From Gammaproteobacteria bacterium (GTDB taxonomy: Bacteria; Pseudomonadota; Gammaproteobacteria; JAADHS01): a DNA stretch of 64,000 nucleotides. Shown piece by piece: positions 9,027 through 56,393 of the stretch. Position 1 is the stretch's first letter; each line of letters opens with the position of its first letter. The notes beneath the pieces are model-generated. The model saw only the letters and a program-made list of their open reading frames with translations. It was not told the DNA's origin and did no database searches. Both the position numbers and the translations under genes were made by a program. The DNA lies in assembly GCA_013151745.1 (NCBI GenBank), contig JAADHS010000012.1, forward strand, positions 4,354-68,353, in the 5' to 3' direction.

Positions 9027-9896
9027 ATGATTCAAGCGCGTGCTTTACGTCTGGTTGACGGAGTTTCAGATCTGATTGCTTTGCCCGAAGTCAGTCTCAA
9101 GGTTAATGAGTTAGTTGATGATCCTACCTCGTCGGCCGCCGATATGGCTCAAGTCATTAGCCTGGATGCGGCTATAACGGCAAAATTGCTGAAAGTTGCT
9201 AACAGTTCTTTTTATCGCTTTCCATCAAAAATTGATACGGTATCCAGAGCGGTGACGATCATTGGAACGAGAGAGCTTAGGTTCTTGGTTTTAGCCAGTT
9301 CCGCTGTGCGTTCATTTGATAAAATAAATAATAACAATATTGATATTGCTTCGTTTTGGCGTCACAGTGTTTATACTGCGGTTGTTGCACGACTGCTTGC
9401 GACTAAATGTAATATATTACATAAAGAACGACTTTTTGTCTGTGGCTTGCTTCACGATGTGGGTCATTTGGTCATGTCGCACCGCATCCCTGATCTTGTG
9501 CAAGTGATGCAATATCGAGCCGAGACGGCCAAAATCCCAAGGTATGAGGCTGAACAGAGTGTCTATGAAGTCGATCATGCCCTCGTTGGGGCCGAGTTAC
9601 TCAAATCATGGGGCTTGCCGGAAAGTTTGCAAGATGCGATTAAATATCACCACGAACCTGAGAAAGCAGCGGATTATATGCTAGAAACTTCAATCGTGCA
9701 TATTGCCAACAGTCTTGGCAAGCTGGGAGAGCTGGGTGGTACCGACTTAAGCCAGTGTCCGATGATCTCACCTGTTGCATGGGAGGTGACGAAGTTATCA
9801 CCAGACATTGTAGAATCTGTCTTGCAGGAGGCGCGAGCACAATTTTTGGAAGCGCTATTGTTATTCTTGCCCGGCGTTGCTGTAGCAGCGAGTTGA
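9027..9896 (+). CDS. HDOD domain signalling protein
   Basis: 289 aa with HD-related output domain motifs (..FRHSVYTAVVARLLA.., ..GLLHDVGHLVM..). Confidence 0.75.
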   Translation: MIQARALRLVDGVSDLIALPEVSLKVNELVDDPTSSAADMAQVISLDAAITAKLLKVANSSFYRFPSKIDTVSRAVTIIGTRELRFLVLASSAVRSFDKINNNNIDIASFWRHSVYTAVVARLLATKCNILHKERLFVCGLLHDVGHLVMSHRIPDLVQVMQYRAETAKIPRYEAEQSVYEVDHALVGAELLKSWGLPESLQDAIKYHHEPEKAADYMLETSIVHIANSLGKLGELGGTDLSQCPMISPVAWEVTKLSPDIVESVLQEARAQFLEALLLFLPGVAVAAS

Positions 9897-9908: not shown

Positions 9909-10337
9909 ATGGTGGCAATACAGTTAGATCGGGTCAGGCTCACTAATTTAAGGTGGTTGATTCGCCAGGAAGGATCGGTAACGCAACTGGCGGCAAAGCT
10001 CACCATTTCACCCATTTACATTTTTAATGTATTAGATGGTCAGTTTACTATTGGTGATGCGCTTGCCCGAAAAATAGAAGGTATTTATGGCTATTCACGT
10101 GGTTGGATGGACGGCAGTAATGATATCAAAATCAACACCGAAACAGTGGTTCCTGTTCTAACGCTTGACCAGGCAAGACAGCCTGCACAAAATGAAGGTG
10201 GCAATGAATTGCTCTCAGATTTCATGAACACTTTCGAGGATGCCGCTGTTGAAAATGGGCTGAATTTAACACCAGAGCAAAAAGAAAAATATTTGTTGGA
10301 TATCGAGAAAAACGTTTCTGACAAAAAGCAAACATAA
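9909..10337 (+). CDS. Small XRE/Cro-like HTH protein
   Basis: 142 aa with a GGAG RBS 5 bp upstream. A helix-turn-helix-like segment (SVTQLAAKLTISPIYIFNVLDGQ..IGDALARKIEGIYG) is followed by an acidic tail. It lies 12 bp after the HDOD gene. Confidence 0.5.
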   Translation: MVAIQLDRVRLTNLRWLIRQEGSVTQLAAKLTISPIYIFNVLDGQFTIGDALARKIEGIYGYSRGWMDGSNDIKINTETVVPVLTLDQARQPAQNEGGNELLSDFMNTFEDAAVENGLNLTPEQKEKYLLDIEKNVSDKKQT

Positions 10338-10602: not shown

Positions 10603-11685
10603 TTAAAGACTCAGCATGTTTTTAACAATTTGTTTGGCACCATCAAATGCGTCAGGTTCACAAAATACAGGGTATTTTTGCGTTGTTAATGCAGAAAATT
10701 CTGCTTGAAAATGCCCCTGAAAAAGTTGTTCGCGAGTGATGTTTTGACATAAGCCGTTAATTTTTAACCAAGAAACTAAGAATGACTCTTCTGGCCAATC
10801 GCCACGTTTCACATACAATACCGGTTTTTTATTACAGGCCGCTTCAGTAAAAATGCCATACCCTGGTTTGGTGATCACACAATCCACAGAGCATAGCAAG
10901 TCAAGATAGCTATAGGAGAATTGATCTATAGCGATTAAATCGTCACGTTTACATTCTGTTGTGTCTGGCACCAGCCATACTTGATTAGGGTAACTTGGCC
11001 ATTGATCGAAAGGAATATCGGTTTTGACCCCGCCAAGCGCAACTAGAGTTAACTGAATATTCGTTGCGTTTATCTTTTTTAGTAAATGGTCTTTAACGGA
11101 CTGACCTCGTTGAGCAATGGGGTTAACCTGTATGGCGTTTTCAAGCCAGTTCATTGGCATACAAGGCGTTATTTTGTAAAAACAGTCGGCAGCATTATAA
11201 CTATTTTGTATTTGTTGATAAATGTCGTCTGCAGTGGCGTTGTTTTTACAATAAGAATGAAAAATATCAGCCCAGTTTAGAGAGCACATTGCAATACAGG
11301 GGTAATCGCTATTTTGCGTGGCAAGCAAGGGCAAATAAGCAATATTCGAGATCAGCAAGTCGGGGGATAAGGCGTCAAAAAAAAGGTTACATGCGTGTTT
11401 TTGTTTCTCCCAATGTTGGTGTAAATTTTGATATTGGGCCATGCTTTTTTTAGCTAGAACATCAATGCTTGATGCCATCACCATGCCAAAGTCCCATGAT
11501 CGCTCTATATGCCGACAACCGGGTAGTCGTCGTTTGATGATGGTGGGTGAAATTCCGGAAACAACGGTAATTTCAGCATGGGGAATCAAGCACAGCAGTT
11601 CTTTGATCACCGGTATCGTTTGGGCTAAGTGACCCAGGCCGTGCGCAGAAACAGTAAATACGAAATGGGGTTTGTTCGAGTTCAT
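10603..11685 (-). CDS. Glycosyltransferase-like protein (GT-B/UDP-glycosyltransferase-like, MJ1255-type)
   Basis: 360 aa with an N-terminal SAHGLGH motif and two Rossmann-like halves. No family search was possible. Confidence 0.45.
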   Translation of the reverse strand: MNSNKPHFVFTVSAHGLGHLAQTIPVIKELLCLIPHAEITVVSGISPTIIKRRLPGCRHIERSWDFGMVMASSIDVLAKKSMAQYQNLHQHWEKQKHACNLFFDALSPDLLISNIAYLPLLATQNSDYPCIAMCSLNWADIFHSYCKNNATADDIYQQIQNSYNAADCFYKITPCMPMNWLENAIQVNPIAQRGQSVKDHLLKKINATNIQLTLVALGGVKTDIPFDQWPSYPNQVWLVPDTTECKRDDLIAIDQFSYSYLDLLCSVDCVITKPGYGIFTEAACNKKPVLYVKRGDWPEESFLVSWLKINGLCQNITREQLFQGHFQAEFSALTTQKYPVFCEPDAFDGAKQIVKNMLSL

Positions 11686-11824: not shown

Positions 11825-12295
11825 GTGGAGAATGCTATGCCAATAAATGAAAATAGGGTTCCAGAGCGCCGCATGCGTTCTGTTACAATGGTTCAAAAGC
11901 TGGTTGAAGTCCGCAGCGACATGTTAAGTCTCTATAGTGAATTAGCTGAAAGAAAACCCTATCACGATGTTGGAGACGATTTCCCCGAGGTGTTGGCTGA
12001 TTTTTGTGCCTCATTAATCGATTACACTGCTAATGCCCACTTTCAGCTATATCGGTATTTTGCAGAAAAGAAAGAAAGGCGGCAGCGTATTATTGATGTG
12101 GCGGATAAAATTTATCCGCGTATCGTTGATATTACGCAGAGCATTTTGGATTTTAATGATAAATATGATAGTGATCAACAACGGCAAAATCTATGCGACC
12201 TTGAAAAAGACTTGTCTGTTCTGGGTGAAGCTTTAGCCGAACGTATTGAGCTGGAAGATAACCTCATTGATGTCTTAAGCAGCTCTGGAAAATAA
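11825..12295 (+). CDS. rsd: Rsd/AlgQ-family regulator of sigma D (anti-sigma-70)
   Basis: 156 aa. It aligns by eye to E. coli Rsd: DDFCQSLVDYLSAGHFSIYERI against ADFCASLIDYTANAHFQLYRYF, and LSDIGEALEARFVLEDKLI against LSVLGEALAERIELEDNLI. Confidence 0.75.
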   Translation: MENAMPINENRVPERRMRSVTMVQKLVEVRSDMLSLYSELAERKPYHDVGDDFPEVLADFCASLIDYTANAHFQLYRYFAEKKERRQRIIDVADKIYPRIVDITQSILDFNDKYDSDQQRQNLCDLEKDLSVLGEALAERIELEDNLIDVLSSSGK

Positions 12296-20378: not shown

Positions 20379-20789
20379 TTAATAACCCGCTTTGATGTGA
20401 TCTATTGTGATTTGTAAAAATGTACGCCACTGTTGTTCCATGGCAGGTGTGAATTCAGAATCAAGCTCGGTGAATACGGTCATCAAGCTATCAAGCCAAT
20501 AGATATATAAGTGTGGAGCGATATCTAGATTATGCCGGGTGTGACTGTTGCGTATTTTATTGATCGCTTGTTTGGCAACGACATTGTCTTCGGGGAAAAG
20601 TAGAGATAAAGCAAGAGATTGCTCTAGCAAATTGTATTGTTTTTTTAAGTCTGTATTAGCAAATTTAGCAGAAATTTCTGGTGAGCTGGCCATGAGAACC
20701 TCATAAAACCGGGGTAAAAATTCTGATTTAGCAACAACACGGCCGAAACTTTGCTTCAATACGTGATGGTCGGCACCGGTTTCAGTCAT
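20379..20789 (-). CDS. Single-domain globin (bacterial hemoglobin-like)
   Basis: 136 aa. The pattern ..IRNSHTRHNLDIAPHLYIYWLDSLM.. parallels the F/G helix region of Vitreoscilla-type hemoglobins (KHxxxGVxxxHYxxVGxxLL). Confidence 0.5.
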   Translation of the reverse strand: MTETGADHHVLKQSFGRVVAKSEFLPRFYEVLMASSPEISAKFANTDLKKQYNLLEQSLALSLLFPEDNVVAKQAINKIRNSHTRHNLDIAPHLYIYWLDSLMTVFTELDSEFTPAMEQQWRTFLQITIDHIKAGY

Positions 20790-23388: not shown

Positions 23389-23967
23389 ATGCGCAAGCCT
23401 ATTCTATTATTATCGGGATTTCTTCTTTTAACACTCTTGATTGCTGCTTGTAGTAATTCGGGGATTCGCAAGGATTCTCCAGCATTGGCATTGGTGGGTA
23501 ATGACGCCTACCTGAAAGTCAATGTCTGGTATGAACATCCCCTGAAAATTCTCTCAACCAACTACCATAAAGGCATTATGTTAAAAGTGGGAGATAAATT
23601 TAAAATCATCGATGTCAGTGGTAAAAAAATAATTTTCAGTGATGAAAATGGCATCGAATACGCCATTATTTACAATCGAGGACATACTCTGGTTAGTATG
23701 GCCGATCTGCTTTCTCGTACCTTTAGCAAAACCAGTGTGCTGGAGCCGGGAGGCGCTTTCTCAAAGTTTTCCGAAATGGAACAGCAAAATATTCGTCAAG
23801 GTAAGGTCGTCATAGGTATGAGTAAAAATGCCGTTGTCATGGCTTTCGGCTACCCGCCTGAGCATCGCACTTCGACCAGAGCAGCGGATGCCTGGACGTA
23901 CTGGCGGAATAGATTTGTTACAAACAATGTCACCTTTGAAGAAGATAGAGTGGTTTCTTTTCGCTGA
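23389..23967 (+). CDS. Lipoprotein of unknown function inserted between leuC and leuD
   Basis: 192 aa with an AAGGAAG RBS. Signal peptide plus lipobox (LLTLLIAAC|SNSG). No recognisable domain. Confidence 0.6.
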   Translation: MRKPILLLSGFLLLTLLIAACSNSGIRKDSPALALVGNDAYLKVNVWYEHPLKILSTNYHKGIMLKVGDKFKIIDVSGKKIIFSDENGIEYAIIYNRGHTLVSMADLLSRTFSKTSVLEPGGAFSKFSEMEQQNIRQGKVVIGMSKNAVVMAFGYPPEHRTSTRAADAWTYWRNRFVTNNVTFEEDRVVSFR

Positions 23968-27122: not shown

Positions 27123-30100
27123 GTGCGAGTTCTAAAATCCCTTATAGTAGGAATAGGCTTATTCGTTTTCGGTGTGACGCAAGTCTATGGTTTAGGGTTA
27201 GGTGATATTGAGCTTAACTCCAACTTGAATCAGCCCCTTAAGGCTAAAATTGAGTTGTTTGTCGTTGATCCTGATGAATTGAAACAGCTTGAAGTGAAGT
27301 TGGCCGATAAAACGGCTTATGAAATTTCTGGTGTTGAGCATGTTCCTCTGCTAAATGATCTGATTTTTAAAGTGGTCGCGATCGATGGTAATCAAGTTGT
27401 GATTGAAGTCACGACTGAGTCGCCGGTACGTGAACCGTTCCTGGATTTTATTGTTGAGGCGAATTGGGCAGCGGGGCGCTTGCTGAGAGAGTATACTCTG
27501 CTTCTTGATCCTCCAATCTATGCGCAGGAGCACACGGCTCCCATTGTTGCGGCACAAACAATACAACTGTCTTCAGCAAAATCAGAAACGGCTTCCGCTG
27601 AGACTTCGCAACCTGAATCTGCAACAAGCTCATCTACAGTAACGCAATCTTCTGGCCAATTTACTGGGAATGAATATGGGCCTGTTAAAAATAATGAAAA
27701 TTTGTGGAGTATTGCGGAAAAAATGCGCACGGATGGTTCTACTACCGAACAAGTCATGATGGGCTTGTTTAAAATGAATCCAGACGCTTTTTCTGATAAG
27801 AATATTAATAAATTACAAGCAGGCTATGTTTTACGTGTGCCCGATGCAACTACAATCCAGGCGTTGAGTCACTCGGAAGCGGCGAAGCAGGCTCGGCAGC
27901 ATTATAGTGATTGGTTGACACAACGACGTCTTGCTGCGGTCGCAAGCAATCAGTTACCTGGTAATGGCGCGGGTTTGGCAGCGCGAGCTGAAACCAGCGA
28001 TGCTCAGGTCTCTTCAGCTGGTTCAGATGCACAGCTCCGTCTTGTTAGCCCTGAAGAAGGCCAGGACGGATTATCTGGAGCGGGTAGCGGCGGTTTGTCT
28101 GTTACGGATTTGTCGAGAGTGCAAGCTGCAGAAGCTGACATAGCAGCTCAAGCATTGCAAACACGAATTCAAGAACTGGAGAGTAAATTGTCTCAGAAAG
28201 AGCGTTTACTCACATTGCAAAATGATGCTTTATACGAGTTACAGCAGCAGTTAGGAGGCCAAGGAGATTTAGTAGAAGCCACCGCCACCGAATTTACTGA
28301 TGCTGATGCGGCTAATGACCCGACGACAATACGCTCACCTGGCGAAGTGGTAGCTAACGCCGAGCCTGCTGAATCTACAACAGAAACAATAACAACGCCA
28401 GAAAAGGCGGCAACTTCGGTCGCGGATGTTGAGCCAGAGTCTAGTGTTGTTGTGACGGCACAAGTGGATCCACCATCGACAGTAGCAGAAAATAAGTGGA
28501 TGGATCTATTAGAAAATACCAATGTGTTGTTAATAGGTGGTGCTGTTTTATTGCTGATTGGTGCGCTAATTTGGGGTTGGGTGCGACGCCGACAATTAGT
28601 GGCTGAAGAAGAATTTGATGCCGAGGCGTACGGACTCTTGCCTGGTGAGTTGAAAATGCCAGAGGGTGACGGTGAAGTTGGCATTATGCAAGCTGAAACG
28701 GAACGGCCAGAGTCTGTTTTAAGCGATTCTCGCATTGCGTCAGAAGAAGTTGAAAGTAGTGATATCTTTGCAGAAGATTCGACTGCGGGTATGGATTCTT
28801 TTGAAACGGATGATGTCGAGGTTGATCCTCTTGCCGAAGCTGATGTTTATCTTGCCTATCGTCGTTATGGCCAAGCTGAAAATAGAATTAGAACCGCGCT
28901 GGAACAAGATCCTGAATCAGAACGTCTGCACATGAAGTTGATGGAAATTTATTATAGCTCTGAAAACCAGCTTGCTTTTGAGGCCGAAGCTGAAGCTATT
29001 TTTGCACGACAAGGTGGCGATGAGACAGCCTGGTCACAAATAGTCGAAATGGGTCGTGAATTATGCCCGGATCATCCTCTGTTTGGTGAAACGAAAGCAA
29101 CAGATACGACTGAGTTAGATAACCTCTCTTTAGATGAAGATATTGACCTGGATAGCTTTGACTTAGATCATTCTGGTGCTGATGCGCAGTCTCAGGATGA
29201 TATGTTTGCAATGACGCCAGATGATGTTTCGACTGAAATGCTTGCCGAAGCAGATGATCATTCTGCCCCACTTGACTCACTGCTAGACAGTGAAATTGAA
29301 GATTTGAATGGGGTTGAAGACTTAGCTGTAGATGCGGCCAGTCTTGATGAGATGTCGATTACTGATGAAACTATCGCTGAAACTGACAATGAAATTGCTT
29401 CTTTGCTGGAAGGTTTGGACAGCTTCGGAGAAGAGACCCCTGACTCTCCTGAGAGTAAAAATATTAAGGACAGTCGTGCTACTGATGAGTTACCAGCAGT
29501 GGCGGATCAGATGCAAGACGACGGGTTTGAAAATATTCCTTCCTTTGACAAAGAGGGCGCTCAAGCTGAGAGTCAAGTTAATTCTGAGGCCGAATTGTCA
29601 ACGGATAATGTCGTGGATTTTGATTCATCGGAACTTGCTCATTCTGGTCGAGTGGTGCATGGTGGTGGGCGTGATGATTTACCTTCGGACTTGGACTCGA
29701 GGGCGGCGGATGCTGATCTCGATAGAAAGAATAAAAACGAAGGTTTGAGTAGTGACATTGCGGCACATGCTGAAGATGAAAACGTTGATTTTGTAGCGGG
29801 TCTGGATTTAAGTGGTTTGGGCGGCGATATTACTAGTGACGATTTTTCATCAGAGTCAAAATACTTACAGGATGATAATGAAGATAGCAGCATTGCGGCT
29901 GATATCATTCCAATGCCAGGAGCGGAAGTTGTTGATAGTGTGCCGGAAAATGTGGGTCATGCTGATGTTCGGAGTGGTGACTTGTTTGGTGGTATGGATG
30001 CAATAGGAACGAAGCTTGATTTGGCACGTGCCTATATTGAAATGGAAGATAGAGTTGGTGCGCGTGATATCCTGGAAGAAGTCTTAGAAGAAGGTAGCGA

Positions 30101-30146
30101 CGATCAGAAGCAGGAAGCTGAGACAATTATGCATAATATGAATTAA
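27123..30146 (+). CDS. fimV: FimV/HubP-family pilus assembly and polar-landmark protein
   Basis: 1007 aa with a GTG start. Signal/TM at the N-terminus, a conserved FimV N-terminal region, a LysM motif (..NLWSIAEKM..KLQAGYVLRVPD), a long highly acidic low-complexity middle, a TM segment (LLIGGAVLLLIGALIWGW) and a TPR-like FimV C-terminal motif (..DLARAYIEMEDRVGARDILEEVLEEG..). It lies downstream of asd as in Pseudomonas. Confidence 0.8.
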   Translation: MRVLKSLIVGIGLFVFGVTQVYGLGLGDIELNSNLNQPLKAKIELFVVDPDELKQLEVKLADKTAYEISGVEHVPLLNDLIFKVVAIDGNQVVIEVTTESPVREPFLDFIVEANWAAGRLLREYTLLLDPPIYAQEHTAPIVAAQTIQLSSAKSETASAETSQPESATSSSTVTQSSGQFTGNEYGPVKNNENLWSIAEKMRTDGSTTEQVMMGLFKMNPDAFSDKNINKLQAGYVLRVPDATTIQALSHSEAAKQARQHYSDWLTQRRLAAVASNQLPGNGAGLAARAETSDAQVSSAGSDAQLRLVSPEEGQDGLSGAGSGGLSVTDLSRVQAAEADIAAQALQTRIQELESKLSQKERLLTLQNDALYELQQQLGGQGDLVEATATEFTDADAANDPTTIRSPGEVVANAEPAESTTETITTPEKAATSVADVEPESSVVVTAQVDPPSTVAENKWMDLLENTNVLLIGGAVLLLIGALIWGWVRRRQLVAEEEFDAEAYGLLPGELKMPEGDGEVGIMQAETERPESVLSDSRIASEEVESSDIFAEDSTAGMDSFETDDVEVDPLAEADVYLAYRRYGQAENRIRTALEQDPESERLHMKLMEIYYSSENQLAFEAEAEAIFARQGGDETAWSQIVEMGRELCPDHPLFGETKATDTTELDNLSLDEDIDLDSFDLDHSGADAQSQDDMFAMTPDDVSTEMLAEADDHSAPLDSLLDSEIEDLNGVEDLAVDAASLDEMSITDETIAETDNEIASLLEGLDSFGEETPDSPESKNIKDSRATDELPAVADQMQDDGFENIPSFDKEGAQAESQVNSEAELSTDNVVDFDSSELAHSGRVVHGGGRDDLPSDLDSRAADADLDRKNKNEGLSSDIAAHAEDENVDFVAGLDLSGLGGDITSDDFSSESKYLQDDNEDSSIAADIIPMPGAEVVDSVPENVGHADVRSGDLFGGMDAIGTKLDLARAYIEMEDRVGARDILEEVLEEGSDDQKQEAETIMHNMN

Positions 30147-35891: not shown

Positions 35892-36986
35892 ATGCTTAAT
35901 ATGTCACAGGAAGATATCGAAAAAATGGAAATGACAAGCAGCAAAAAAAAATTAGTTTATTTAACCGAATACAGCCATGGTGCGGGCTGTGGCTGCAAGA
36001 TCTCCCCAGCGTTTTTAGAAAAAATACTGCATAGTGAACAACCTGCTCCCGTTTTTCCTAACTTACTTGTAGGCTATGGTCATTGTGATGATGCTGCTGT
36101 GTTTGATCTCGGCGATGGCTCGTCAATGATTAGTACCACTGATTTTTTTATGCCTATAGTCGATGATCCTTTTGAGTTTGGCCAAATCTCGGCCACTAAT
36201 GCCATCAGCGATATTTATGCCATGGGGGGGACCCCTTCAATGGCGATTTCGATTTTCGGTTGGCCGATTAATAAACTGGGGCTGGACATTGCCGCACAAG
36301 TGATCGAAGGTGGACGCCGTGCTTGCCATAATGCGGGTATTCCCCTGGCGGGTGGGCATTCCATTGATACTCCGGAACCTATTTTTGGTTTGGCGGTCAC
36401 CGGGAGAGTGGAAAATCAACATTTAAAACGGAACGACCAGGCACAAGCCGGTTGCCAACTGTTTCTCACTAAACCTTTGGGTATCGGTATCCTCACCACC
36501 GCAGAAAAGAAAAAATTGCTGAAACCAGAGCATGCTCGTTTGGCGCCTGAAACCATGTGTCAGCTCAATAGTATAGGGGTTGCTCTTGCGGCTTTACCAG
36601 GCGTAAAAGCAATGACCGATGTCACCGGTTTTGGTTTGCTGGGTCATTTGCTGGAGATGTGTGAAGGCAGTGCGTTGCAGGCAAAAATTTGTTATGACCG
36701 GATACCCAAATTAGCGGAGATTGAACGCTACTTAGAGTTAGGTTGTTCCCCTGGTGGGGCACAACGTAATTTCGAGAGTTACAGCCATAAACTGGGCGAA
36801 ATGCCGACATTGCAGCAACAAATTTTATGTGATCCACAAACTTCTGGTGGTTTGTTGGTCGCTGTTCGTCCTGATGGTGTGGATGCTTTTTTAGAAGTCA
36901 CCCAAAAACATGCTTTACAGTTGACCTGTATCGGTGAATTCAGTGAACGTAGAGAGCGTGCCGGTTATTATGTCGAGGTGATATAA
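35892..36986 (+). CDS. selD: Selenide, water dikinase (selenophosphate synthetase), Cys-type
   Basis: 364 aa with the HGAGCGCK motif, Cys rather than Sec (no in-frame TGA), and an AIR-synthase-like fold. Confidence 0.9.
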
Positions 36987-36989
36987 AAA

Positions 36990-38096
36990 ATGCCTAAAAC
37001 GCTTCTTCCTCAACGTGATGACTATCGGCAACTGTTTCTGAATGAAACGCCATTGTTAGATGTTCGTGCACCCGTAGAGTATGAGTTAGGTGCCTTTCCT
37101 GTGACGCAAAACGTGCCAATAATTGATAACGATGAACGTCAAGCCATTGGTTTATGTTACAAGCAGAAAGGACAGGAGCATGCCATTGAACTGGGCTATC
37201 AACTCGTTAGTGGTGATCTCAAAGCACAGCGAATCGCAGCCTGGGTTGACTTTGTGCAGCAATATCGCAAAGGGGCTTTGTACTGTTTTCGAGGTGGTAT
37301 GCGTTCTGAAATTACTCAGCGCTGGATTTATGAGCAATCGGGTTTTATTTATCCCCGAATCAAAGGTGGCTACAAAGCCCTGCGCCATTTTCTGCTCAAT
37401 GAGCTGGATGTTTCAATAGCACAGCTTGATTTTACTCTACTTAGTGGGCGCACTGGTGTGGGTAAAACCAACTTGTTATATACGATGACCCGACAGGTTG
37501 ACCTCGAAGGTATCTATCGTCACTGTGGTTCGGCATTTGGCAAAATAGCACAGCAACAACCGAGTCAGATTGATATTGAAAACGAACTTTCTATTATTTT
37601 AATGAAGCATTGTCACTGGCAGCACAGCCATCTTTTATTAGAAGATGAATCTGCTAATATCGGTTCTCGGCGTATTCCTGATGTTTTGCTGGAAAAAATG
37701 GCGATGGCTCCCGTCGTTGTTTTGGAATCATCGCAGGATGATCGAGTTGAACTTATCTACCAAAAATATATTGTCGATTCCTGTCAACAACACCAAGCAC
37801 GGTATGGTATAGAACAAGGTGTTCGGTTATGGGTAGACAATTTAAGCTATGCCTTGTTAAAAATAAAACGTCGTTTAGGCGGTGCACGTTATGCTGATGC
37901 CAAAACTATGCTGGACGTAGCTTTAGCTAAACCATACGAACTCGCTATAGCAGAACACAAAACCTGGATCGCTTTTTTACTCAATGAATACTACGATACT
38001 ATGTATGATTACCAACTAAAAAATAAAGCTGATCGTGTACTGTTTAAAGGCAATAAGCAGGAAGTGAAAGCCTATTTTAAAAAATACGCTTTCTGA
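36990..38096 (+). CDS. mnmH: tRNA 2-selenouridine synthase
   Basis: 368 aa: N-terminal rhodanese domain (..LLDVRAPVEYELG..CFRGGMRS) plus a P-loop (SGRTGVGKT). It lies 3 bp after selD. Confidence 0.85.
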   Translation: MPKTLLPQRDDYRQLFLNETPLLDVRAPVEYELGAFPVTQNVPIIDNDERQAIGLCYKQKGQEHAIELGYQLVSGDLKAQRIAAWVDFVQQYRKGALYCFRGGMRSEITQRWIYEQSGFIYPRIKGGYKALRHFLLNELDVSIAQLDFTLLSGRTGVGKTNLLYTMTRQVDLEGIYRHCGSAFGKIAQQQPSQIDIENELSIILMKHCHWQHSHLLLEDESANIGSRRIPDVLLEKMAMAPVVVLESSQDDRVELIYQKYIVDSCQQHQARYGIEQGVRLWVDNLSYALLKIKRRLGGARYADAKTMLDVALAKPYELAIAEHKTWIAFLLNEYYDTMYDYQLKNKADRVLFKGNKQEVKAYFKKYAF

Positions 38097-38188
38097 AAAC
38101 GCATAGAGTTCAAGTGACCGGGATATTAGAACTTACAAAAGGGGAAAGTTTCAAAAAACGGGTCTGATGTGATTTTGATCATTTTATC

Positions 38189-38563
38189 TTAAAGTCGTTG
38201 TATCATAGCAAGGACGTTCTCCGGGGGACGCCCTATAGCCGCTTTGCCATTGGCAATAACAATGGGACGTTCTATTAATATAGGATTATTGACCATCGTA
38301 TTAACAAGAGCATCCATTGTTAACTCAGGGTCGTCCAGGTTTTCACTCTCGTATACTTTTTCTTTTCTTCGCATTAGGTCTCGAGGATCTTCAATGCCCA
38401 GCAATTTAATAATGTGCTTTAATTCTTTTTTATTCGGTGGTGTTTTCAGGTATTCAATGACCTGAATTTCTGTATCTGAAGCATGTTCTTCAAGCAGTTT
38501 AAGTGTTTGACGGGATTTTGAACACCGCGGATTATGATAAATAATAATGCATCCGTTTTCCAT
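38189..38563 (-). CDS. ArsC/Spx-family protein (YffB-like arsenate reductase family)
   Basis: Start set at ATG 38563 (MENGCIIIYHNPRCSKSRQ..) with a GGAG RBS. The CxxS motif is characteristic of the ArsC/Spx family. Confidence 0.7.
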   Translation of the reverse strand: MENGCIIIYHNPRCSKSRQTLKLLEEHASDTEIQVIEYLKTPPNKKELKHIIKLLGIEDPRDLMRRKEKVYESENLDDPELTMDALVNTMVNNPILIERPIVIANGKAAIGRPPENVLAMIQRL

Positions 38564-38699
38564 AAAATTCTCCAAAATAATTGATCCTAATTATCGTTGA
38601 AAAAGCGACAAAAAGCGAATGATGTTATTGTCCTGTCTAACTCATAACGGGTTGTTTCGTAAGGGTATAAAAAATAAGGTAAATTACATTAGCCTGTCT

Positions 38700-39509
38700 T
38701 TATAACGAATCTTTAGTATGAACAATGATCGCTTTATTGTCTGTTTTTTCACCAAACGAGGGATTATTGTTTCGACGCATTTTCCATTGAAAGTGATAAG
38801 TGCCAGGTTCTGATGGCGCTCGGATGACAAATTTAAATGTTTTGAAGGCGCCGGGTTGAGTTTGCTCTTTTTCTGAAAAATCAATTCTATTGACGAGCCA
38901 GGTTAAATTATGAGGCGGATTGCGCGACATTAAAAAAACGTTGCGATCAGTCCAGGTTTGGTTTCCTGTGTTTTTATAAATGATACTGACTTCATAGTTT
39001 TCGTTCGCCATCATGACTTGATCGATACTTTGTGCGATAAACTCCGAGTCGTAATCATGGCTATAGACAGCGATGCGACGGCCAACTTGAATTTTCGTAT
39101 TGGGGTTACTTTCTCCGAATACTCCTTTGTTGCGATGGGACATTTGCCAGTCAAAATTATAAGTACCCGCTTGTTGAGGGGCGGTGAGTGTGAAGATAAA
39201 ACTAGCAATTTCACCAGGTGAAACGCGGGTGTTTTTCGGAAGGTGGATTCGTTGTTTTCCCCATGTTTTTCTTGATAGCGTAGAGATTGCTTTTAATTCG
39301 TAAGAACCGTCGCTGTTCCAGGTTTGTGTGCTGGTATTTTTGAATTGAATAACCACTTTGAAAGTTTCACCCGGGTTAACAAGATCGGGTACTAACTGAG
39401 AGAGGAACTTGCTTTGTGCCATTGTTGGATGACTGACAAATAACAACATGAGCGTAAAAAGAAAAAACTTTATTTGACTGTGCTGGGTAAAACGAAGAAG
39501 TTTTGGCAT
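38700..39509 (-). CDS. Secreted protein with two tandem beta-rich (Ig-like) repeats of about 120 aa
   Basis: Start set at ATG 39509 (AGGA RBS; MPKLLRF..HPTMAQS signal peptide). Two internally similar halves: GETFKVVIQFKNTSTQTWNSDGSYELK...GTYNFDWQMSHRNKGVFGE, and ENYEVSIIYKNTGNQTWTDRNVFLMS...GTYHFQWKMRRNNNPSFGE. It lies 14 bp downstream of the ATPase gene. Confidence 0.55.
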   Translation of the reverse strand: MPKLLRFTQHSQIKFFLFTLMLLFVSHPTMAQSKFLSQLVPDLVNPGETFKVVIQFKNTSTQTWNSDGSYELKAISTLSRKTWGKQRIHLPKNTRVSPGEIASFIFTLTAPQQAGTYNFDWQMSHRNKGVFGESNPNTKIQVGRRIAVYSHDYDSEFIAQSIDQVMMANENYEVSIIYKNTGNQTWTDRNVFLMSRNPPHNLTWLVNRIDFSEKEQTQPGAFKTFKFVIRAPSEPGTYHFQWKMRRNNNPSFGEKTDNKAIIVHTKDSL

Positions 39510-39523
39510 TATTTTATCCTGAC

Positions 39524-41899
39524 TTATTTTGAGCATACGGCTCTAATCGCTAAAATATCAGTATGGCCTTGAATAACTTTTGCTACGCCATCTTGACGGA
39601 GTGTCCGCATGCCTTCCTGTAAACACGTAGCCACGAGCTGACTAACGGTTGCCTTGGTAAAAATGTCGTGTTTCACTGCATCGGTGCCTATGAGTAATTC
39701 ATGGACTCCAATACGGCCTCGATAACCACTATCGTCACATGTTTTGCAGCCTGTTTTTTTATATAATGTAAATTGTTGCTCATCGTTACTGTATTTTTCT
39801 GTCCACTCAGCTCGTGTTTGTTTATAAATTGTATTGATGCTGTCTTTATCTTTTAGGTCTTTAACATACTCAGTACAATACTCTTTCACTAGATTTTTGA
39901 TTTCTTCTTCGTCAGGTGTATAGGCTTCTTTACAGTCTTTGCAGAGTCGTTTGGCTAATCGTTGTGCCAATATACCCAGCAAGGCATCGGCGAAATTAAA
40001 AGGATCCATACCCATATCCAATAATCGAACAATACTTTCCGGTGCACTATTGGTATGCAATGTGGAAAAAACTAAATGACCGGTTAACGAAGCTTCTACA
40101 CCAGTTGCAACGGTTTCTTGATCCCGCATTTCACCCACCATAATGACATCTGGGTCGGCGCGAAGAAAGGCACGCATTGCATTGGCAAAAGTGAGATCTA
40201 TTTTTGGATTGACTTGCATTTGACGTAGTCCTTTTTGAGTAATCTCAACCGGATCTTCAGCCGTCCATATTTTTCGTTCAGGTGTATTAATGTGACCCAG
40301 TACAGAGTGCAGGGAGGTGGTTTTACCTGAGCCGGTAGGTCCACAGACTAGAAACAATCCATAGGGTTTGGATATCGCTGTTTTCAGTAAAGCCAGGTTA
40401 TGTTCGCTTACGCCCAAGTCATCCAGCGGAATAGGTATGCCACCTGCCAAAATACGCATTACCACATCTTCCTGCCCATTAACAGTGGGCAAGATCGCGA
40501 TACGCAGTTCTAGCTTGCCTCCATTGGGTTTTTTAAATTCTATTTTGCCATCTTGAGGGCGTCGTTTTTCTGAAATATCAAGGCGTGCCAGTATTTTGAT
40601 ACGAGAAATAAGTGCGTTTTTATATTGTGCCGGCACTTCATGATATTTTACCAAAGTACCATCACGACGAAATCGTACCATTACCTTACCTTTGCCTGGG
40701 GAGGGTTCTATGTGGATATCCGAGGCATCAAAGGCTTGTGCATCAATAATAATTTTGTTGAGTAGCTTAACAACGGCATTATCGGCTAAATCGTCTTCAC
40801 TCGTATCTTCTTCATCTTCGGAGGAAAAGGCTTCTAATTCTATGCCGCTATCATCCATGATATCATCAAGAGACTCATCGTTTGCTTCATTACCGGCATA
40901 GTACAGAGAAATAGCTTTACTTATGTCTTCTGCCGTTGCCATCACGGGTTCGACATATTTATTGGTATGAAAACGGAGCTCATCCAGAGCTTCCCAGTCC
41001 ATCGGGTTTTCCAATGCAACTATAAGCTTGTCTTTGTGCAACAAAACGGGAAGAACGGTGTGTTGGTTTGCGATGTTGTAGGGAACGGTTTTAATTTCTT
41101 CACCACCGATATCAATTTTTTCTAACTGAACAAAAGGAATGCCGAGTTTTTTTGCTAAACTTTGTTGAATTTCAGCGGTGGTGACTAAACCTTTTTCAAT
41201 TAAAATTTCGCCAAGAGGAACGCCTGTTTTATTTTTTTGTTCTTCTAATGCCTCATCAATGAGTTCTTGTTCAACCAGTTTTTCGCCAACTAAAATTTCC
41301 CCCAGCTTCATATGAGGCAGTGATTTTTGACGGTTTAGTGCGATAAGCAGATCTTCGGTGTTGGTGATGGCCTTTGATGCTAATATTTCATTGATCTCTG
41401 CTTGTTTTTTTTCTTCGGCAGTCAGTGGTGTTTCGCTTGTACTGTCCGCATCGGAGGTCTTTAATGTTAGACGTTCATTGCCGACCTGGCATTGTTGAAT
41501 TGATTCTAATGGGATAAAGGAGTGTTGATATTTGTTTTGCATGAATTTGGGGTAGAGATAGACCCCTATGTCATCTAATCTGTAGCCTACCGTATCGCCA
41601 TCCAGTATGGAGTCATCATGAAAAACTAACTTGAATTCTTCAGGGGTTAATCCTTTGTTTATAGGCTTTGGTGTGGGTAGGTGAAGCATCTGGATGGCTG
41701 ATATTGGAATTTTAATGGGTGCAGGTTTGCCTTTGAGCACCAGAACTACGAATTTTTTTTGTTGCTCGAATGCGGATAATTTGCCATTAATATTGGTACC
41801 ATTGCGCAGTGACACAATAACCAATTCTCCCGGTTGGACTACCGAGCTGGGGTTACTTTCGCACGTAGGGGGTGTGGGTAAAATTGACTCTTGTTCCAT
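39524..41899 (-). CDS. GspE/PilB-family secretion/pilus ATPase with MshEN-type tandem c-di-GMP-binding motifs and a roughly 190-aa N-terminal extension
   Basis: 791 aa. Walker A GPTGSGKTT, Walker B/Asp box (..VIMVGEMRD..), His box (GHLVFSTLHTN), C-terminal tetracysteine CxxC...CxxC (CKDCKEAY..CKTCDDSGY). N-terminal T2SSE_N region with two 24-aa motifs, KLGEILVGEKLVEQELIDEALEEQ and PLGEILIEKGLVTTAEIQQSLAKK, which resemble the MshEN c-di-GMP-binding motif as remembered. Residues 1 to about 190 are unassigned. Confidence 0.8.
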   Translation of the reverse strand: MEQESILPTPPTCESNPSSVVQPGELVIVSLRNGTNINGKLSAFEQQKKFVVLVLKGKPAPIKIPISAIQMLHLPTPKPINKGLTPEEFKLVFHDDSILDGDTVGYRLDDIGVYLYPKFMQNKYQHSFIPLESIQQCQVGNERLTLKTSDADSTSETPLTAEEKKQAEINEILASKAITNTEDLLIALNRQKSLPHMKLGEILVGEKLVEQELIDEALEEQKNKTGVPLGEILIEKGLVTTAEIQQSLAKKLGIPFVQLEKIDIGGEEIKTVPYNIANQHTVLPVLLHKDKLIVALENPMDWEALDELRFHTNKYVEPVMATAEDISKAISLYYAGNEANDESLDDIMDDSGIELEAFSSEDEEDTSEDDLADNAVVKLLNKIIIDAQAFDASDIHIEPSPGKGKVMVRFRRDGTLVKYHEVPAQYKNALISRIKILARLDISEKRRPQDGKIEFKKPNGGKLELRIAILPTVNGQEDVVMRILAGGIPIPLDDLGVSEHNLALLKTAISKPYGLFLVCGPTGSGKTTSLHSVLGHINTPERKIWTAEDPVEITQKGLRQMQVNPKIDLTFANAMRAFLRADPDVIMVGEMRDQETVATGVEASLTGHLVFSTLHTNSAPESIVRLLDMGMDPFNFADALLGILAQRLAKRLCKDCKEAYTPDEEEIKNLVKEYCTEYVKDLKDKDSINTIYKQTRAEWTEKYSNDEQQFTLYKKTGCKTCDDSGYRGRIGVHELLIGTDAVKHDIFTKATVSQLVATCLQEGMRTLRQDGVAKVIQGHTDILAIRAVCSK

Positions 41900-42293
41900 T
41901 GTCTTTGTGAATTGCTTCCGTGTCAGTTATTACATGTCAGTTCCTTATTATCGACATTCATGGTGTTAGACTTGAGTTCTCTAGTTCCCATTGCTCGCAA
42001 GGACGCGGAAAGATTGCGTAGTAGATTGTTTTCACAATAAAAATTGCGAGTAAGAGGAATAACTGTGTCTATTTGTTAGCGAATACCATGGTACCCCCTT
42101 GAGGGTGTACTAGGTTAAAGGGGCTCACTTACGAGCGGCAAAAACAGGTGGCAGATAAGATTATGTCAAAAAGAAGGGGGGAGATTAATTGATAACTGGA
42201 AATATATTCCGATTAAATTTTTTTATAATTTAAATGGTTAGGTGAATATAACCTTTAAAAAATAGTGCTTTCATTGAAAAGCTGTCTAGTTTA

Positions 42294-53884: not shown

Positions 53885-54094
53885 TTTTTTACTCTAAGTG
53901 TTGGGCGTGTGTTAGGGTGACGGATGCGACGCCAAGCTTAATGCCTTGCGCGTTCGTTCAGCTCCGAAAAAGGACGTTATTTTAACCTGAAATTCATTTA
54001 AAAACAGAAAAATAGACGCTATTAGAGTATAAAAATATATACATAATAAATGAAGTGATTGTATCTTTTTGTTTTTAAATGAATTTTTTAGTTT

Positions 54095-54280
54095 TTAAAC
54101 TGCTTTTGTTTTGACTTTCCCACATCGTTGGCAAGCCGTGCGGGTCATCAATTTGCCTTGTTTGACATCGAACTGTGGTTTGTTTTCAATCTGCCACTTG
54201 TGAAAACCGCTTCGACATAAGGTTGATCCTTTATGCTTTTCACTGGGTTTGCGCTTTTTAAAGGGGATAATCTCAGCCAT
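54095..54280 (-). CDS. Small Cys-rich (zinc-ribbon-like) hypothetical protein
   Basis: 61 aa with an AAGGAA RBS. C..H and CxRCGK motifs. Very basic. Confidence 0.45.
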   Translation of the reverse strand: MAEIIPFKKRKPSEKHKGSTLCRSGFHKWQIENKPQFDVKQGKLMTRTACQRCGKVKTKAV

Positions 54281-54334
54281 TCTATAAATTCCTTACGGTT
54301 TCAGTTTTTCTCAGAATACCAAACTGATTAACCT

Positions 54335-54520
54335 AAAAACGTAGTTGATTCACGATGTAGAGTATTTACGTCTGGTTTTATTTTTATAAGTAGTTGATTT
54401 TTATATCTATGTGGGAAAATTGTGATCACCTTGTTGGTGCTTGAAATTTTCCCGCATAGTTAGGCGGATCAAAAGCTTGTATTATACATTGTGGATCAAC
54501 TGTATTTTTTAGATTTAATC
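54335..54520. repeat. Intergenic repeat element copy D (about 185 bp, imperfect terminal inverted repeats)
   Basis: AAAAACGTAGTTGATTCACGATGTAGAG at 54335-54362 against the reverse complement of TACATTGTGGATCAACTGTATTTTTT at 54485-54510. The internal module TTTTCCCGCATAGTTAGGCGGATCAAAAGCTTGTAT is shared with copy C. Confidence 0.7.
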
Positions 54521-54751
54521 CTATCTGTCTGATTTTACAGTTATTGTAAGCGAACAGGTTAAGTTATTTCATAAATTGTCCGACTATATAGCCATAGCGT
54601 TATGATTAGGTGCGACTCTATATTCTGTACATCTACGACATCATGTGCTACTTTTTCTTTATGAGCTAATGTTTATTTGTCTTAACTCTGAACAAGACTT
54701 AAGCTAAAAAATGAGGGGTTGCAGGTTTGAATTTCCCTCAAAGGAGCCAAA

Positions 54752-54949
54752 ATGACTGATTTGATTAAAAGGCTTTTTAGAGTACATGTTAACAGCGAAG
54801 ATGCCCGAGTGCGTGCCGCAATAAAACGCTCAGGTGCAAGAGTGGTGGGCAGAGGTACTGTCGTAATTGATCCAGATAAAGTGAGAAACAGTAAAAAGTT
54901 TCGAGACAATGCCAAATTAGCCCAAAATTTAGTGAAAAAAGCATCGTAA
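54752..54949 (+). CDS. Small basic hypothetical protein
   Basis: 65 aa with an AGGAG RBS 6 nt upstream. Lys/Arg-rich. No recognisable domain. Confidence 0.4.
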   Translation: MTDLIKRLFRVHVNSEDARVRAAIKRSGARVVGRGTVVIDPDKVRNSKKFRDNAKLAQNLVKKAS

Positions 54950-54973
54950 GAAAAGCATGTACTAAACTTTTTT

Positions 54974-55747
54974 GTGTTCCTTTTATTAACTCTTTCAATT
55001 CTTGTTAGCGGCTTCATTGTTTGCAACAAAAACCCTCATTATTATTTTAGGCTTCATCGTTATCACGGGCAGCACTTATACCTAAGAAGTGCCTATCTTG
55101 GTGTAATATCTTTATTATTATTCTCAATGACTGCTCTCCTGTGCAAGCAATTTTTCCCTTCGAGCACGGGGATCAATTTTGTCTCTGTAATGGAGTCTTT
55201 TTTAGACGATGTGTTTACAAAAAATGACGAAAATTTAACATTATACTCATGGATGATTATTCTCTCCGTTGGAACTATTTTAACGGCCTATCTGTGGTGC
55301 TTTTTGACATGGCTTAGGCTGGGCTTCGGTTATAAATCCAGAGAAAGCGCAAAAGCAAATATTATGTATGATTTACTAAAAGACAGTCCGTTGGATAAAC
55401 TGTTATTCATGGCCAGTATTGATGAAGCTCCGGTACTTTTGACGTTACAGTCAAGAAAAGTTTATGTGGGATACATCACTTCTCTTGGTGAACCTAATGA
55501 AACTGAAGGCATGGATCAGGAAATAACCATAATCCCTCAAGTAAGTGGGTATAGAATGGAAGAAACATTAGAAGTGGCGTTTAATACTCAATACAATAAT
55601 CACGATGTAAAAGTAGATCTGGTGATTCGGCAAGAACAAATACTCTCCGCCACATTATTCGATTATTCAGCTTATAGCACATTGAATCCACCTGCTGAGG
55701 AAACTCCTATTCAACAAAAGTTGGACTTAGGATCTGTAAATAAATAA
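54974..55747 (+). CDS. Hypothetical membrane protein in an AT-rich segment
   Basis: 257 aa by the GTG start, with no clear RBS, so the start is uncertain. Three hydrophobic helices, then a C-terminal soluble region of about 140 aa. Codon usage is visibly AT-skewed relative to its neighbours. Confidence 0.4.
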   Translation: MFLLLTLSILVSGFIVCNKNPHYYFRLHRYHGQHLYLRSAYLGVISLLLFSMTALLCKQFFPSSTGINFVSVMESFLDDVFTKNDENLTLYSWMIILSVGTILTAYLWCFLTWLRLGFGYKSRESAKANIMYDLLKDSPLDKLLFMASIDEAPVLLTLQSRKVYVGYITSLGEPNETEGMDQEITIIPQVSGYRMEETLEVAFNTQYNNHDVKVDLVIRQEQILSATLFDYSAYSTLNPPAEETPIQQKLDLGSVNK

Positions 55748-55898
55748 CCTGGCATTTAAACCTTAATCTCTACGGGTATAGTATTCCGTCTCCGGTATTG
55801 CTCAAAGAATGACATACAACGAGTATGTTCACTTTGAGACGAATACCAGGTTATTTATTGACCGCCTCTTAGGTTCACCGTAAATTGAGTTATACATT

Positions 55899-56393
55899 AT
55901 GAATAAAAAAAACGCTGAGCGGCGTGATACCAAAGCGGTTGCGATATTAATGCAGATCTGGCGGTGGACTCATTTATTGCCGGGAGGTAAATGGCTGTTT
56001 AGTAAAATATTAGGTTGGGTTGTGCCTTATACTGGAACGATGGGTGCAAAAGTACTTGCGTTGGAACCCGGTTATGCCAAAGTGGAGCTTAACGAGTGTC
56101 GGCGAGTGCGCAATCATCTGCGATCTGTTCATGCGATTGCTTTGATTAATTTAGGTGAATTAAGTAGTGCATTGGCGATGTTTTCAATTTTGCCTAAAGA
56201 TGTGCGTGGTATCGTCCGGCATATGTCTGTAGATTTCAATAAAAAAGCACGGGGTCGTTTGACAACGGAAAGCTGGGTTGAGATGCCTGAAAACTTTGAT
56301 AAAACCTTGGTTGTGACCGCGAGTATTGTTGATGAAGAAGGGGATTGGGTTGCTGAAGTTCACGTTGATTGGCAATTAGAGCAATTGTCATGA
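55899..56393 (+). CDS. DUF4442/YiiD_C-like hotdog-fold protein (thioesterase-like)
   Basis: 164 aa. The family assignment is from memory of the YiiD C-terminal domain and is moderate. Confidence 0.45.
   Translation: MNKKNAERRDTKAVAILMQIWRWTHLLPGGKWLFSKILGWVVPYTGTMGAKVLALEPGYAKVELNECRRVRNHLRSVHAIALINLGELSSALAMFSILPKDVRGIVRHMSVDFNKKARGRLTTESWVEMPENFDKTLVVTASIVDEEGDWVAEVHVDWQLEQLS

Follow-up and report, generated by a model that had tools for sequence, protein, structure and literature searches.

Introduction

Motor ATPases of the PilB/MshE type are the entry point of c-di-GMP (cyclic dimeric GMP) control over pilus extension and surface attachment. MshE of Vibrio cholerae, the extension ATPase of the mannose-sensitive hemagglutinin (MSHA) pilus, is a c-di-GMP receptor by virtue of its MshEN domain, in which the motif RLGxx(L/V/I)(L/V/I)xxG(L/V/I)(L/V/I)xxxxLxxxLxxQ occurs in two copies with a 5-residue joint (PMC5013675). 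Binding depends chiefly on the hydrophobic and glycine residues of the motif, and changes of Arg9 and Gln32 lower it at most about fivefold (PMC5013675). The 2016 catalogue of MshEN architectures holds GAF-, REC-, and (MshEN)2-4-T2SSE forms, without any beta-barrel variant. A second extension ATPase can accompany the canonical one, as in Acinetobacter baylyi, where the phylogenetically distinct TfpB is found in addition to PilB; the reason for which some bacteria possess more than one such motor is not settled (PMC11656802).

Here, we analyze an ATPase gene of this class found in a stretch of 64,000 nucleotides from a Gammaproteobacteria bacterium (GenBank assembly GCA_013151745.1, contig JAADHS010000012.1), hereafter called the window, together with the gene that follows it, which encodes a predicted secreted protein made of FW (four-tryptophan) domains. 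By sequence comparison, the ATPase is a member of a distinct and strongly constrained paralogous subfamily within the extension-ATPase branch, widespread in environmental Gamma- and Betaproteobacteria and almost always encoded alone. The pairing with the FW gene is a narrow lineage feature.

A PilB/MshE-class ATPase of a broad subfamily

We examined the window ATPase for the hallmarks of the T2SSE superfamily. Pfam T2SSE matched residues 373 to 782 with 388.7 bits (E = 2.7e-116; cut-off, 24.9), and all three catalytic motifs were found, namely, Walker A (GPTGSGKT, residues 520 to 527), the Walker B/Asp box (DPDVIMVGE, 582 to 590), and the His box (TGHLVFSTLHT, 606 to 616). Walker A, Walker B, and the His box are near-invariant across 58 aligned relatives. 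The protein also carries the C-terminal tetracysteine (CxxC...CxxC) Zn-binding element that defines the extension/secretion branch, with cysteine pairs at residues 653 to 656 (CKDC) and 718 to 721 (CKTC), and Pfam MshEN (PF05157) covers residues 252 to 337 with 70.8 bits (E = 1e-19; cut-off, 23.1). Judged by these motifs, it is a PilB/MshE-class ATPase of the hexameric type and competent for catalysis, and it would presumably assemble into hexamers. This bears out the sequence-only reading, an earlier annotation made from the DNA alone, which had described a GspE/PilB-family ATPase with Walker A and B motifs, a His box, and a tetracysteine, at least 200 amino acids (aa) longer than its canonical relatives and with an N-terminal extension of about 190 aa; we count about 220 extra residues.

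The Zn element is enlarged. The two CxxC pairs are 61 aa apart in the window ATPase versus 29 in Escherichia coli GspE and 26 in HofB, and the majority of the 124 family members showing the pattern have a spacing of 60 to 61 aa. The insertion of about 32 aa between the pairs is conserved family-wide and contains conserved EYC and W positions.

A search with the full-length protein recovered more than 120 proteins of about 785 to 830 aa that cover 97 to 100% of the window ATPase at 48 to 80% identity. Members from Gamma- and Betaproteobacteria are 44 to 46% identical to it over about 790 aa, while a canonical MshE-like ATPase encoded a few kilobases from a family member in the same loci reaches only 35%. 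Identity that is higher across classes than toward an MshE-like neighbor indicates a distinct paralogue under strong constraint. None of the NCBIfam equivalog models for the three candidate families reached its cut-off. PilB (TIGR02538), the top match, aligned in two stretches with 539.4 bits versus a cut-off of 675.65, GspE (TIGR02533) scored 488.9 versus 630.25, and TfpB (NF053534) scored 435.6 versus 850. We found no literature on the subfamily itself, and it is missing from the 2016 catalogue of MshEN architectures.

The comparison with described motors is instructive on both sides. Like V. cholerae MshE (PMC5013675), the window ATPase has an MshEN_N module with two 24-residue motifs, followed by MshEN_C and then T2SSE; the MshE-related motif model scores over its cut-off, and an MSHA-like cluster lies near related loci. 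Unlike MshE, it is about 220 aa longer, with tandem barrels and the remnant of an extra MshEN_N; its motifs are separated by 6 residues and have K, P, and K for R, R, and Q at their ends; its Zn element is enlarged; and its gene lies outside any msh operon. Among solved structures, the closest by sequence are Thermus PilF (6f8l, E = 3.6e-131), Myxococcus PilB (3jc8), and Geobacter PilB (5tsg), with E values from 1e-121 to 4e-131, and the layout of N1, N2, and C-terminal domain is shared with them. The N-terminal extension of PilF consists of extra MshEN-type modules, and most members of our family similarly have two MshEN_N modules. Unlike all of these, the window extension starts with a beta-barrel domain, and unlike PilB, the window ATPase falls below the PilB equivalog cut-off and has neither pilC nor pilD adjacent to it. 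A precedent is TfpB of A. baylyi, an additional PilB-class ATPase that is phylogenetically distinct and works together with the canonical motor (PMC11656802). The window ATPase is not a TfpB orthologue and differs from it in its N-terminal architecture; any likeness would be one of function.

Tandem beta-barrels at the N terminus

The extension of about 190 aa had been regarded as novel and unassigned. A domain search did not uphold this, since the extension is common to a large conserved subfamily and Pfam calls DUF6982 (PF22478) in several relatives of about 50% identity, in the equivalent of residues ~20 to 150. Scores in the relatives P0031, P0037, and P0047 were 27 to 36 bits (cut-off, 24.5). 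The DUF6982 model gave no match to the window ATPase itself at an E value of up to 1; by phmmer, the window N terminus is homologous to the N termini of the relatives that do match. A word-indexed search with the N-terminal 193 aa found no matches, and an exhaustive phmmer search with residues 1 to 193 against 1.8 billion representatives recovered 30 cluster representatives, always matching at their N termini and mostly about 770 to 840 aa long, the shorter ones probably being fragments. A literature search for DUF6982 found no paper in the library searched.

A confident structure model shows the extension as two tandem Sm/SH3-like beta-barrels. The segments NGTNING (residues 33 to 39) and DDSILDG (95 to 101), pointed out in the sequence-only reading as not being canonical PilZ motifs, lie where it placed them and represent conserved hairpin positions of the two barrels (G34 and G39; D95 and G101). 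Each barrel has the consensus LxDGxxxxGxLxxF, which we take to resemble the Sm1 motif. PilZ was considered as an identity for this region and rejected: neither the RxxxR and (D/N)xSxxG motifs nor the PilZ beta-barrel fold was found.

Downstream of the barrels, most relatives bear a complete extra MshEN_N module (RIGExLV...Q-x5-PLGEYL...Q), exemplified by RIGEMLVEDHLISEEQMDDVLSTQ-DEKRN-TPLGEFLKTKAIVTTKELEKALEKQ in P0031. For the family member at L049:9860-12355, model NF053729 scored 87.8 bits in two stretches, corresponding to two consecutive MshEN_N modules. In the clade of the window, the extra module is reduced to its second helix pair (residues 166 to 193, EINEILASKAITNTEDLLIALNRQKS), and its first half is replaced by a low-complexity linker; residues 141 to 197 are helical in the structure model, with a low predicted local distance difference test (pLDDT) score of 54 to 73. 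Since the first helix pair of the upstream module is gone here, the number of potential c-di-GMP sites varies within the family. The family architecture is tandem Sm/SH3-like barrels, one or two MshEN_N modules, MshEN_C, and T2SSE with an enlarged Zn-finger element.

The MshE-type c-di-GMP module

The sequence-only reading had further proposed two consecutive MshEN-type motifs. These are present, as residues 198 to 221 (motif 1) and 228 to 251 (motif 2) with a 6-residue spacer versus the published 5, and NCBIfam NF053729 ("c-di-GMP_motif, MshE-related") scored 56.9 bits on residues 198 to 250 against a cut-off of 38. Both receptor-domain hidden Markov models, PF05157 and NF053729, are thus over their cut-offs. 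The resemblance to the published motif is incomplete. Neither motif satisfies the strict consensus, with K and P for R at position 1 and, in motif 2, K for Q at position 24. With the relaxed pattern of the same authors, [RKPN]hGxxhhxx[GAS]hhxxxxhxxxhxx[QNKRYWST] (PMC5013675), motif 2 passes and motif 1 misses at position 10 alone, where it has K instead of G, A, or S, the glycine sitting two residues before.

Across 128 family members, G200, L203, L218, and Q221 are invariant and G230, L233, and L248 nearly so, i.e., the ligand-contacting Gly, Leu, and Gln positions are conserved family-wide. Because binding rests mainly on hydrophobic and glycine residues, and these are conserved in the family, c-di-GMP binding by the window ATPase is plausible.

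Genomic context of the ATPase

To this gene pair, the sequence-only reading had assigned no platform protein, prepilin, secretin, or PilMNOPQ component nearby, and we could extend this to the entire window. Pfam scans, which covered 48 of the 50 long open reading frames (ORFs), the two target genes included, detected no PilC/GspF, pilin, prepilin peptidase, secretin, or PilMNOP in the 64 kb. A six-frame phmmer search of the window with E. coli Gsp and Hof proteins matched the ATPase only, a regular expression for prepilin motifs found no match in the window, and the co-location with pilC, pilD, or other pil genes that is expected of PilB was not observed within the 64 kb. The genes recognized by Pfam are metabolic or housekeeping ones, such as sucAB-type dehydrogenase, relA, uvrC, leuCD/leuB-type, asd, glcDEF-type, ArsC-family, and fusA genes.

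The one caveat is a gene for a 1,007-aa protein with a FimV_N domain (27123..30146, plus strand; E = 1.2e-36), 8.5 kb from the pair, which is otherwise the only pilus-related gene. It lies directly downstream of the leuCD/leuB-type genes and asd, its usual position. FimV is a hub protein associated with type IV pili (T4P), and its homologue in the window suggests that the organism makes T4P, probably with machinery encoded elsewhere.

We then compared the flanks (±10 kb) of family members in ten metagenomic loci and 80 loci from species-representative genomes, about 87 of which are distinct; they are cited by locus label below. By their labels, the hosts comprise Gammaproteobacteria (Chromatiaceae metagenome-assembled genomes [MAGs], Tenderia, Acidiferrobacteraceae, Pseudohongiella, SAR86, Glaciecola, and Methylobacter) and Betaproteobacteria (Gallionella, Methylophilaceae, Methylotenera, Nitrosomonadales, and Collimonas rhizosphaerae H4R21). 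The closest one, L011 from a Chromatiaceae MAG, has an ATPase 97% identical to that of the window over the N-terminal 260 aa. Complete or near-complete genomes with a family member include C. rhizosphaerae H4R21 and the Pseudohongiella chromosomes OZ244193.1, OZ245763.1, and OX638378.1, and a copy with 97% identity over the N-terminal 260 aa is encoded on the MAG contig CAYQVF010000005.1. The family ATPase is almost always solitary, amid housekeeping synteny that differs by lineage: for instance, ribosomal-operon-sized genes, an aminotransferase, and EamA in the Pseudohongiella type and xseA, an ArnT-like gene, and DegT in Gallionella. Clustering of the neighboring genes revealed MSHA-like clusters as the sole pilus-related neighbors.

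These clusters were recognized by a secretin 1 to 5 kb downstream of the family ATPase in 11 of the ~87 loci, all from Pseudohongiella/SAR86-type MAGs. They comprise, not all in each locus, an AAA_22 ATPase of the MshM/ExeA type, the secretin (237.8 bits on the MshL model, whose cut-off is 250), a tetratricopeptide repeat protein, an ATPase, and a GspF-like protein. The cluster's own ATPase is 571 to 573 aa long, has its own MshE-type motif, and was seen in five loci (L043, L045, L049, L051, and L054, at about 13 to 20.8 kb), followed in two of them by the GspF-like gene; these counts are low because the fetched flank ends earlier in the other loci, among them the remaining ones with the secretin (L025, L036, L038, L040, L041, and L061). 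As the cluster has an MshE-like motor of its own, the family member is additional in those genomes and not a replacement. Genes for a pyrroloquinoline quinone (PQQ) dehydrogenase, dihydrodipicolinate synthase (DHDPS), and a glutathione S-transferase (GST)-like protein intervene between the family ATPase and the cluster, so this arrangement may represent inherited synteny rather than an operon.

A different arrangement was found in L002 and L009, where nadC lies in the same orientation just upstream of the family ATPase, adjacent to it in L002 (9064-12436) and with one gene between in L009 (7686-12400). The place behind nadC is taken by ppdD-hofB-hofC in E. coli K-12 (L092, 113000-118500), and the position hints at descent of the family gene from an ancestral pilB locus.

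The secreted FW neighbor

Pfam assigned the product of the second gene to N_BRCA1_IG (PF16158; E = 3.4e-18) in two stretches, and the fold agrees, with beta-sandwich domains. The two halves of the protein share 34% identity (E = 6e-21), and the N terminus resembles a Sec signal, with a basic start, FFLFTLMLLFV, and then TMA/QS. The ORF in full spans 38700..39536 on the minus strand. At the junction, the ATPase gene ends as GCC GTA TGC TCA AAA TAA (AVCSK stop), followed by gtcAGGAtaaaata and ATG CCA AAA; given this layout and the AGGA within the 14-nucleotide spacer, the FW gene most likely starts at 39509, which gives a protein of 269 aa. A scan between the two genes found no terminator, with counts near those of shuffled controls. 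In this clade, the ATPase and FW genes are probably co-transcribed, the FW gene being a lineage-specific addition. A secreted neighbor built of two homologous beta-rich repeats behind a 14-bp spacer, as well as co-transcription, had been anticipated by the sequence-only reading, and of the folds that it named (NBR1-like, CARDB, or Ig), we found the NBR1 type, which is Ig-like.

The neighbor shares the FW domain with NBR1 and ILRUN. In bacteria, proteins with FW domains were already on record, for the most part as fusions of the XRE-FW type (PMC3357945); unlike these cytoplasmic fusions, the window protein has a signal peptide and tandem FW domains only. A word-indexed search with it returned just five further homologues, each with an identity of 74% or more. 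The orthologues next to related ATPases are 37 to 39% identical to it, and those in L001 and L006 have three domains versus two in the window.

An FW gene lies downstream of the ATPase in 5 of the ~87 distinct loci, all in the closest clade, and is absent from the other ~80; a role as family-wide partner was therefore ruled out. Within these five species-level loci, the pair is kept despite differing flanking genes. The proposed orphan two-gene module is consequently real in the window, but its FW half is the trait of one clade and being solitary is the norm of the family.

Possible roles of the subfamily

Our preferred reading, held tentatively and with confidence a little short of even, is that the ATPase serves as one more extension-type motor or regulator, supernumerary and c-di-GMP-responsive, which acts in trans on a T4P machine encoded elsewhere. 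That machine would be a type IVa pilus (T4aP) or an MSHA-like one, the ATPase having no operon to itself; the barrels at the N terminus would add a module for protein interaction or regulation, and the FW protein would be a co-transcribed periplasmic or secreted accessory of this clade, probably serving binding or adhesion, and not a core partner. The pair of PilB and TfpB in A. baylyi is a precedent for a second extension ATPase (PMC11656802). Further points in favor are the intact, family-wide catalytic motifs, the T4P extension ATPases as closest solved relatives, the MshE-related motif model scoring over its cut-off, the MSHA-like clusters with a motor of their own near some family members, and FimV in the window. 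Several observations weigh against this proposal. Most loci have no platform, pilin, or secretin gene within 10 kb, so that the coupling to pili is an indirect inference, and no cognate platform for the family was identified in the loci examined. As a rule, an extension ATPase is reported to be dedicated to its own machine (PMC11656802). The MSHA-like neighborhood is confined to one lineage and broken by unrelated genes and may be inherited synteny only. As for the ligand, the motifs depart from the strict consensus at position 1 (K or P), at position 10 in motif 1 (K), and at position 24 in motif 2 (K), as well as by the 6-residue spacer, and residue 225, which is R or K in 124 of 128 family members, is T in the window protein; c-di-GMP binding is thus something that we infer, as are hexamer formation, the coupling to a pilus, and the role of the FW protein, whereas domain content, motif integrity, folds, the breadth of the family, and gene contexts are shown. 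The sequence-only reading had considered a pilus motor unlikely for want of a platform gene. The mostly solitary occurrence of the family speaks for this view, but with MSHA-like clusters near the gene in 11 loci, a link to T4P has to be reckoned with.

The position of the gene, alone amid housekeeping genes in almost every context, would fit the main idea of the sequence-only reading, a stand-alone c-di-GMP-responsive ATPase. This would be a signaling or regulatory ATPase, or a motor for some other substrate, with the Sm-like barrels as its input or output module. The scores below the PilB, GspE, and TfpB equivalog cut-offs also speak for it, as do additions that canonical motors lack, namely, the DUF6982 barrels, the extra MshEN_N, and the 32-aa insertion in the Zn element; as a precedent, PilB reportedly acts as a signaling protein in the regulation of exopolysaccharide (EPS) in Myxococcus (PMC5544727). 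Every catalytic and N1/N2 feature of extension motors is nevertheless kept. MshEN_C/T2SSE_N1, whose homologue contacts platform-associated proteins in type II secretion systems (T2SS) and T4P, is well conserved, and in one lineage the gene is near an MSHA-like cluster. Moreover, a PilB-class ATPase that functions in the absence of a platform is not known, and on balance we regard a stand-alone role as rather unlikely. In a bolder form of this idea, the family would be a new functional class of PilC/GspF-independent, c-di-GMP-gated hexameric ATPases, with the Sm-like barrels as a new substrate or output module that is linked to the FW protein in the clade of the window. Sm-like folds often form rings and bind RNA or peptides. 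We consider this class unlikely.

Slightly less probable still is a displaced canonical pilB or mshE, i.e., the organism's sole extension ATPase serving a pil or msh cluster elsewhere that has no motor of its own. PilB is indeed the top model match, the nadC position in L002 and L009 recalls ppdD-hofB-hofC of E. coli K-12, and FimV is encoded in the window, but 539 bits fall below the PilB cut-off of 676, the ~220 extra residues and the Zn-element insertion are conserved family-wide, and the pilus cluster near some relatives, where the flank suffices to see it, has its own MshE-like ATPase, the two ATPases of those loci being 35% identical. Finally, the 14-nucleotide spacer here and in L004 and the retention of the pair in five loci with differing flanks could be taken for a dedicated system of two genes, with a functional tie between the ATPase and the FW protein, whose export, assembly at the surface, or turnover the ATPase might, for instance, energize. 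More than 90% of family members have no FW gene beside them, and four opposite-strand genes split the pair in L001. Moreover, the Sec signal peptide of the FW protein is an ordinary one, and its export is beyond a cytoplasmic ATPase that lacks a membrane partner. Such a system is very improbable.

What is already known comprises a PilB/MshE-class ATPase with MshEN, an N-terminal domain that is an existing Pfam DUF, and the domain family of the neighbor. The novelty lies in recognizing a broad and coherent subfamily, usually solitary, with tandem Sm-like barrels, c-di-GMP modules in variable number, and an enlarged Zn element. The architecture had been called undescribed, which holds insofar as we found neither literature nor an entry in the 2016 catalogue, but not for DUF6982 and FW, both known domain families. 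The window locus adds little beyond the family. Identifying the partner of these ATPases would reveal either a new way in which motors are regulated or cooperate or a pilus-independent use of the ATPase fold, and a cultured host, C. rhizosphaerae H4R21 (L074), opens the way to experiments.

Features of the pair and other genes of the window

The features of the gene pair and the spacing of the FW gene in related loci are given in Table 1.

Table 1. Features of the ATPase and FW genes in the window and position of the FW gene in relatives
Feature	Coordinates	Strand	Basis or remark
791-aa PilB/MshE-class (T2SSE superfamily) ATPase	39524..41899	-	ORF list and Pfam; belongs to the DUF6982-MshEN-T2SSE subfamily
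Two tandem small beta-barrels (Sm/SH3-like), residues ~20-140	41480..41842	-	Structure model; Pfam DUF6982 region of relatives
Low-complexity linker and MshEN_N remnant, residues 141-197	41309..41479	-	Alignment with relatives
MshEN_N four-helix c-di-GMP-binding module (predicted), residues 198-251	41147..41308	-	NF053729 and pattern test
MshEN_C/T2SSE_N1 subdomain, residues 252-337	40889..41146	-	Pfam MshEN PF05157, E = 1e-19
N2 and C-terminal ATPase domains, residues 373-782	39554..40783	-	Pfam T2SSE
Tetracysteine element CKDC...CKTC, residues 653-721	39737..39943	-	~32-aa insertion specific to the family
Spacer, 14 nucleotides	39510..39523	-	gtcAGGAtaaaata, with Shine-Dalgarno-like AGGA; from the sequence
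269-aa secreted/periplasmic protein (predicted)	38700..39509	-	Signal peptide ~1-31; FW domains ~32-143 and ~152-265
Divergent intergenic region, 394 bp, ATPase gene to glcD	41900..42293	.	Presumed promoter region
FW neighbor in L011			14-nucleotide spacer
FW neighbor in L004			14-nucleotide spacer
FW neighbor in L006/L007			148 bp
FW neighbor in L012			About 400 bp
FW neighbor in L001			About 5 kb; four opposite-strand genes inserted

A promoter scan of the region between the ATPase gene and glcD gave weak promoter-like matches alone, roughly no more than expected by chance from shuffled controls. On the other side of the pair, an ArsC-family gene adjoins the FW gene on the opposite strand, and an ArsC gene is also found about 4 kb from the family ATPase in L002, L003, and L009. 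The same three loci encode single-domain PilZ proteins of 91 to 98 aa about 9 kb upstream of the ATPase (1-217 in L002/L003 and 1098-1394 in L009), a linkage that is probably coincidental.

The stretch from 35892 to 38575 holds a SelD-like gene of the AIR-synthase family, whose product contains GAGCGCK, followed by an ORF of 368 aa without a Pfam match at an E value of up to 1e-5. By the same threshold, no family was assigned to the ORFs 4744-6519 (minus strand, 591 aa), 10603-11685 (minus strand, 360 aa), 20379-20789 (minus strand, 136 aa), and 23389-23967 (plus strand, 192 aa). Near these lie genes for an HDOD-domain protein (9027-9896), an Rsd/AlgQ-family protein, a LonB-like protease, and a RelA/SpoT-family protein. 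Two short ORFs, 9909-10337 and 11825-12295, were scanned as well, and only the second could be assigned. The G+C content, about 0.45 on average in the window, drops to 0.364 at 54001-56000, where no Pfam family matches the ORFs 54682-55029 and 54974-55747, and to 0.387 at 38001-40000, the region of the FW gene; both stretches may have been acquired recently.

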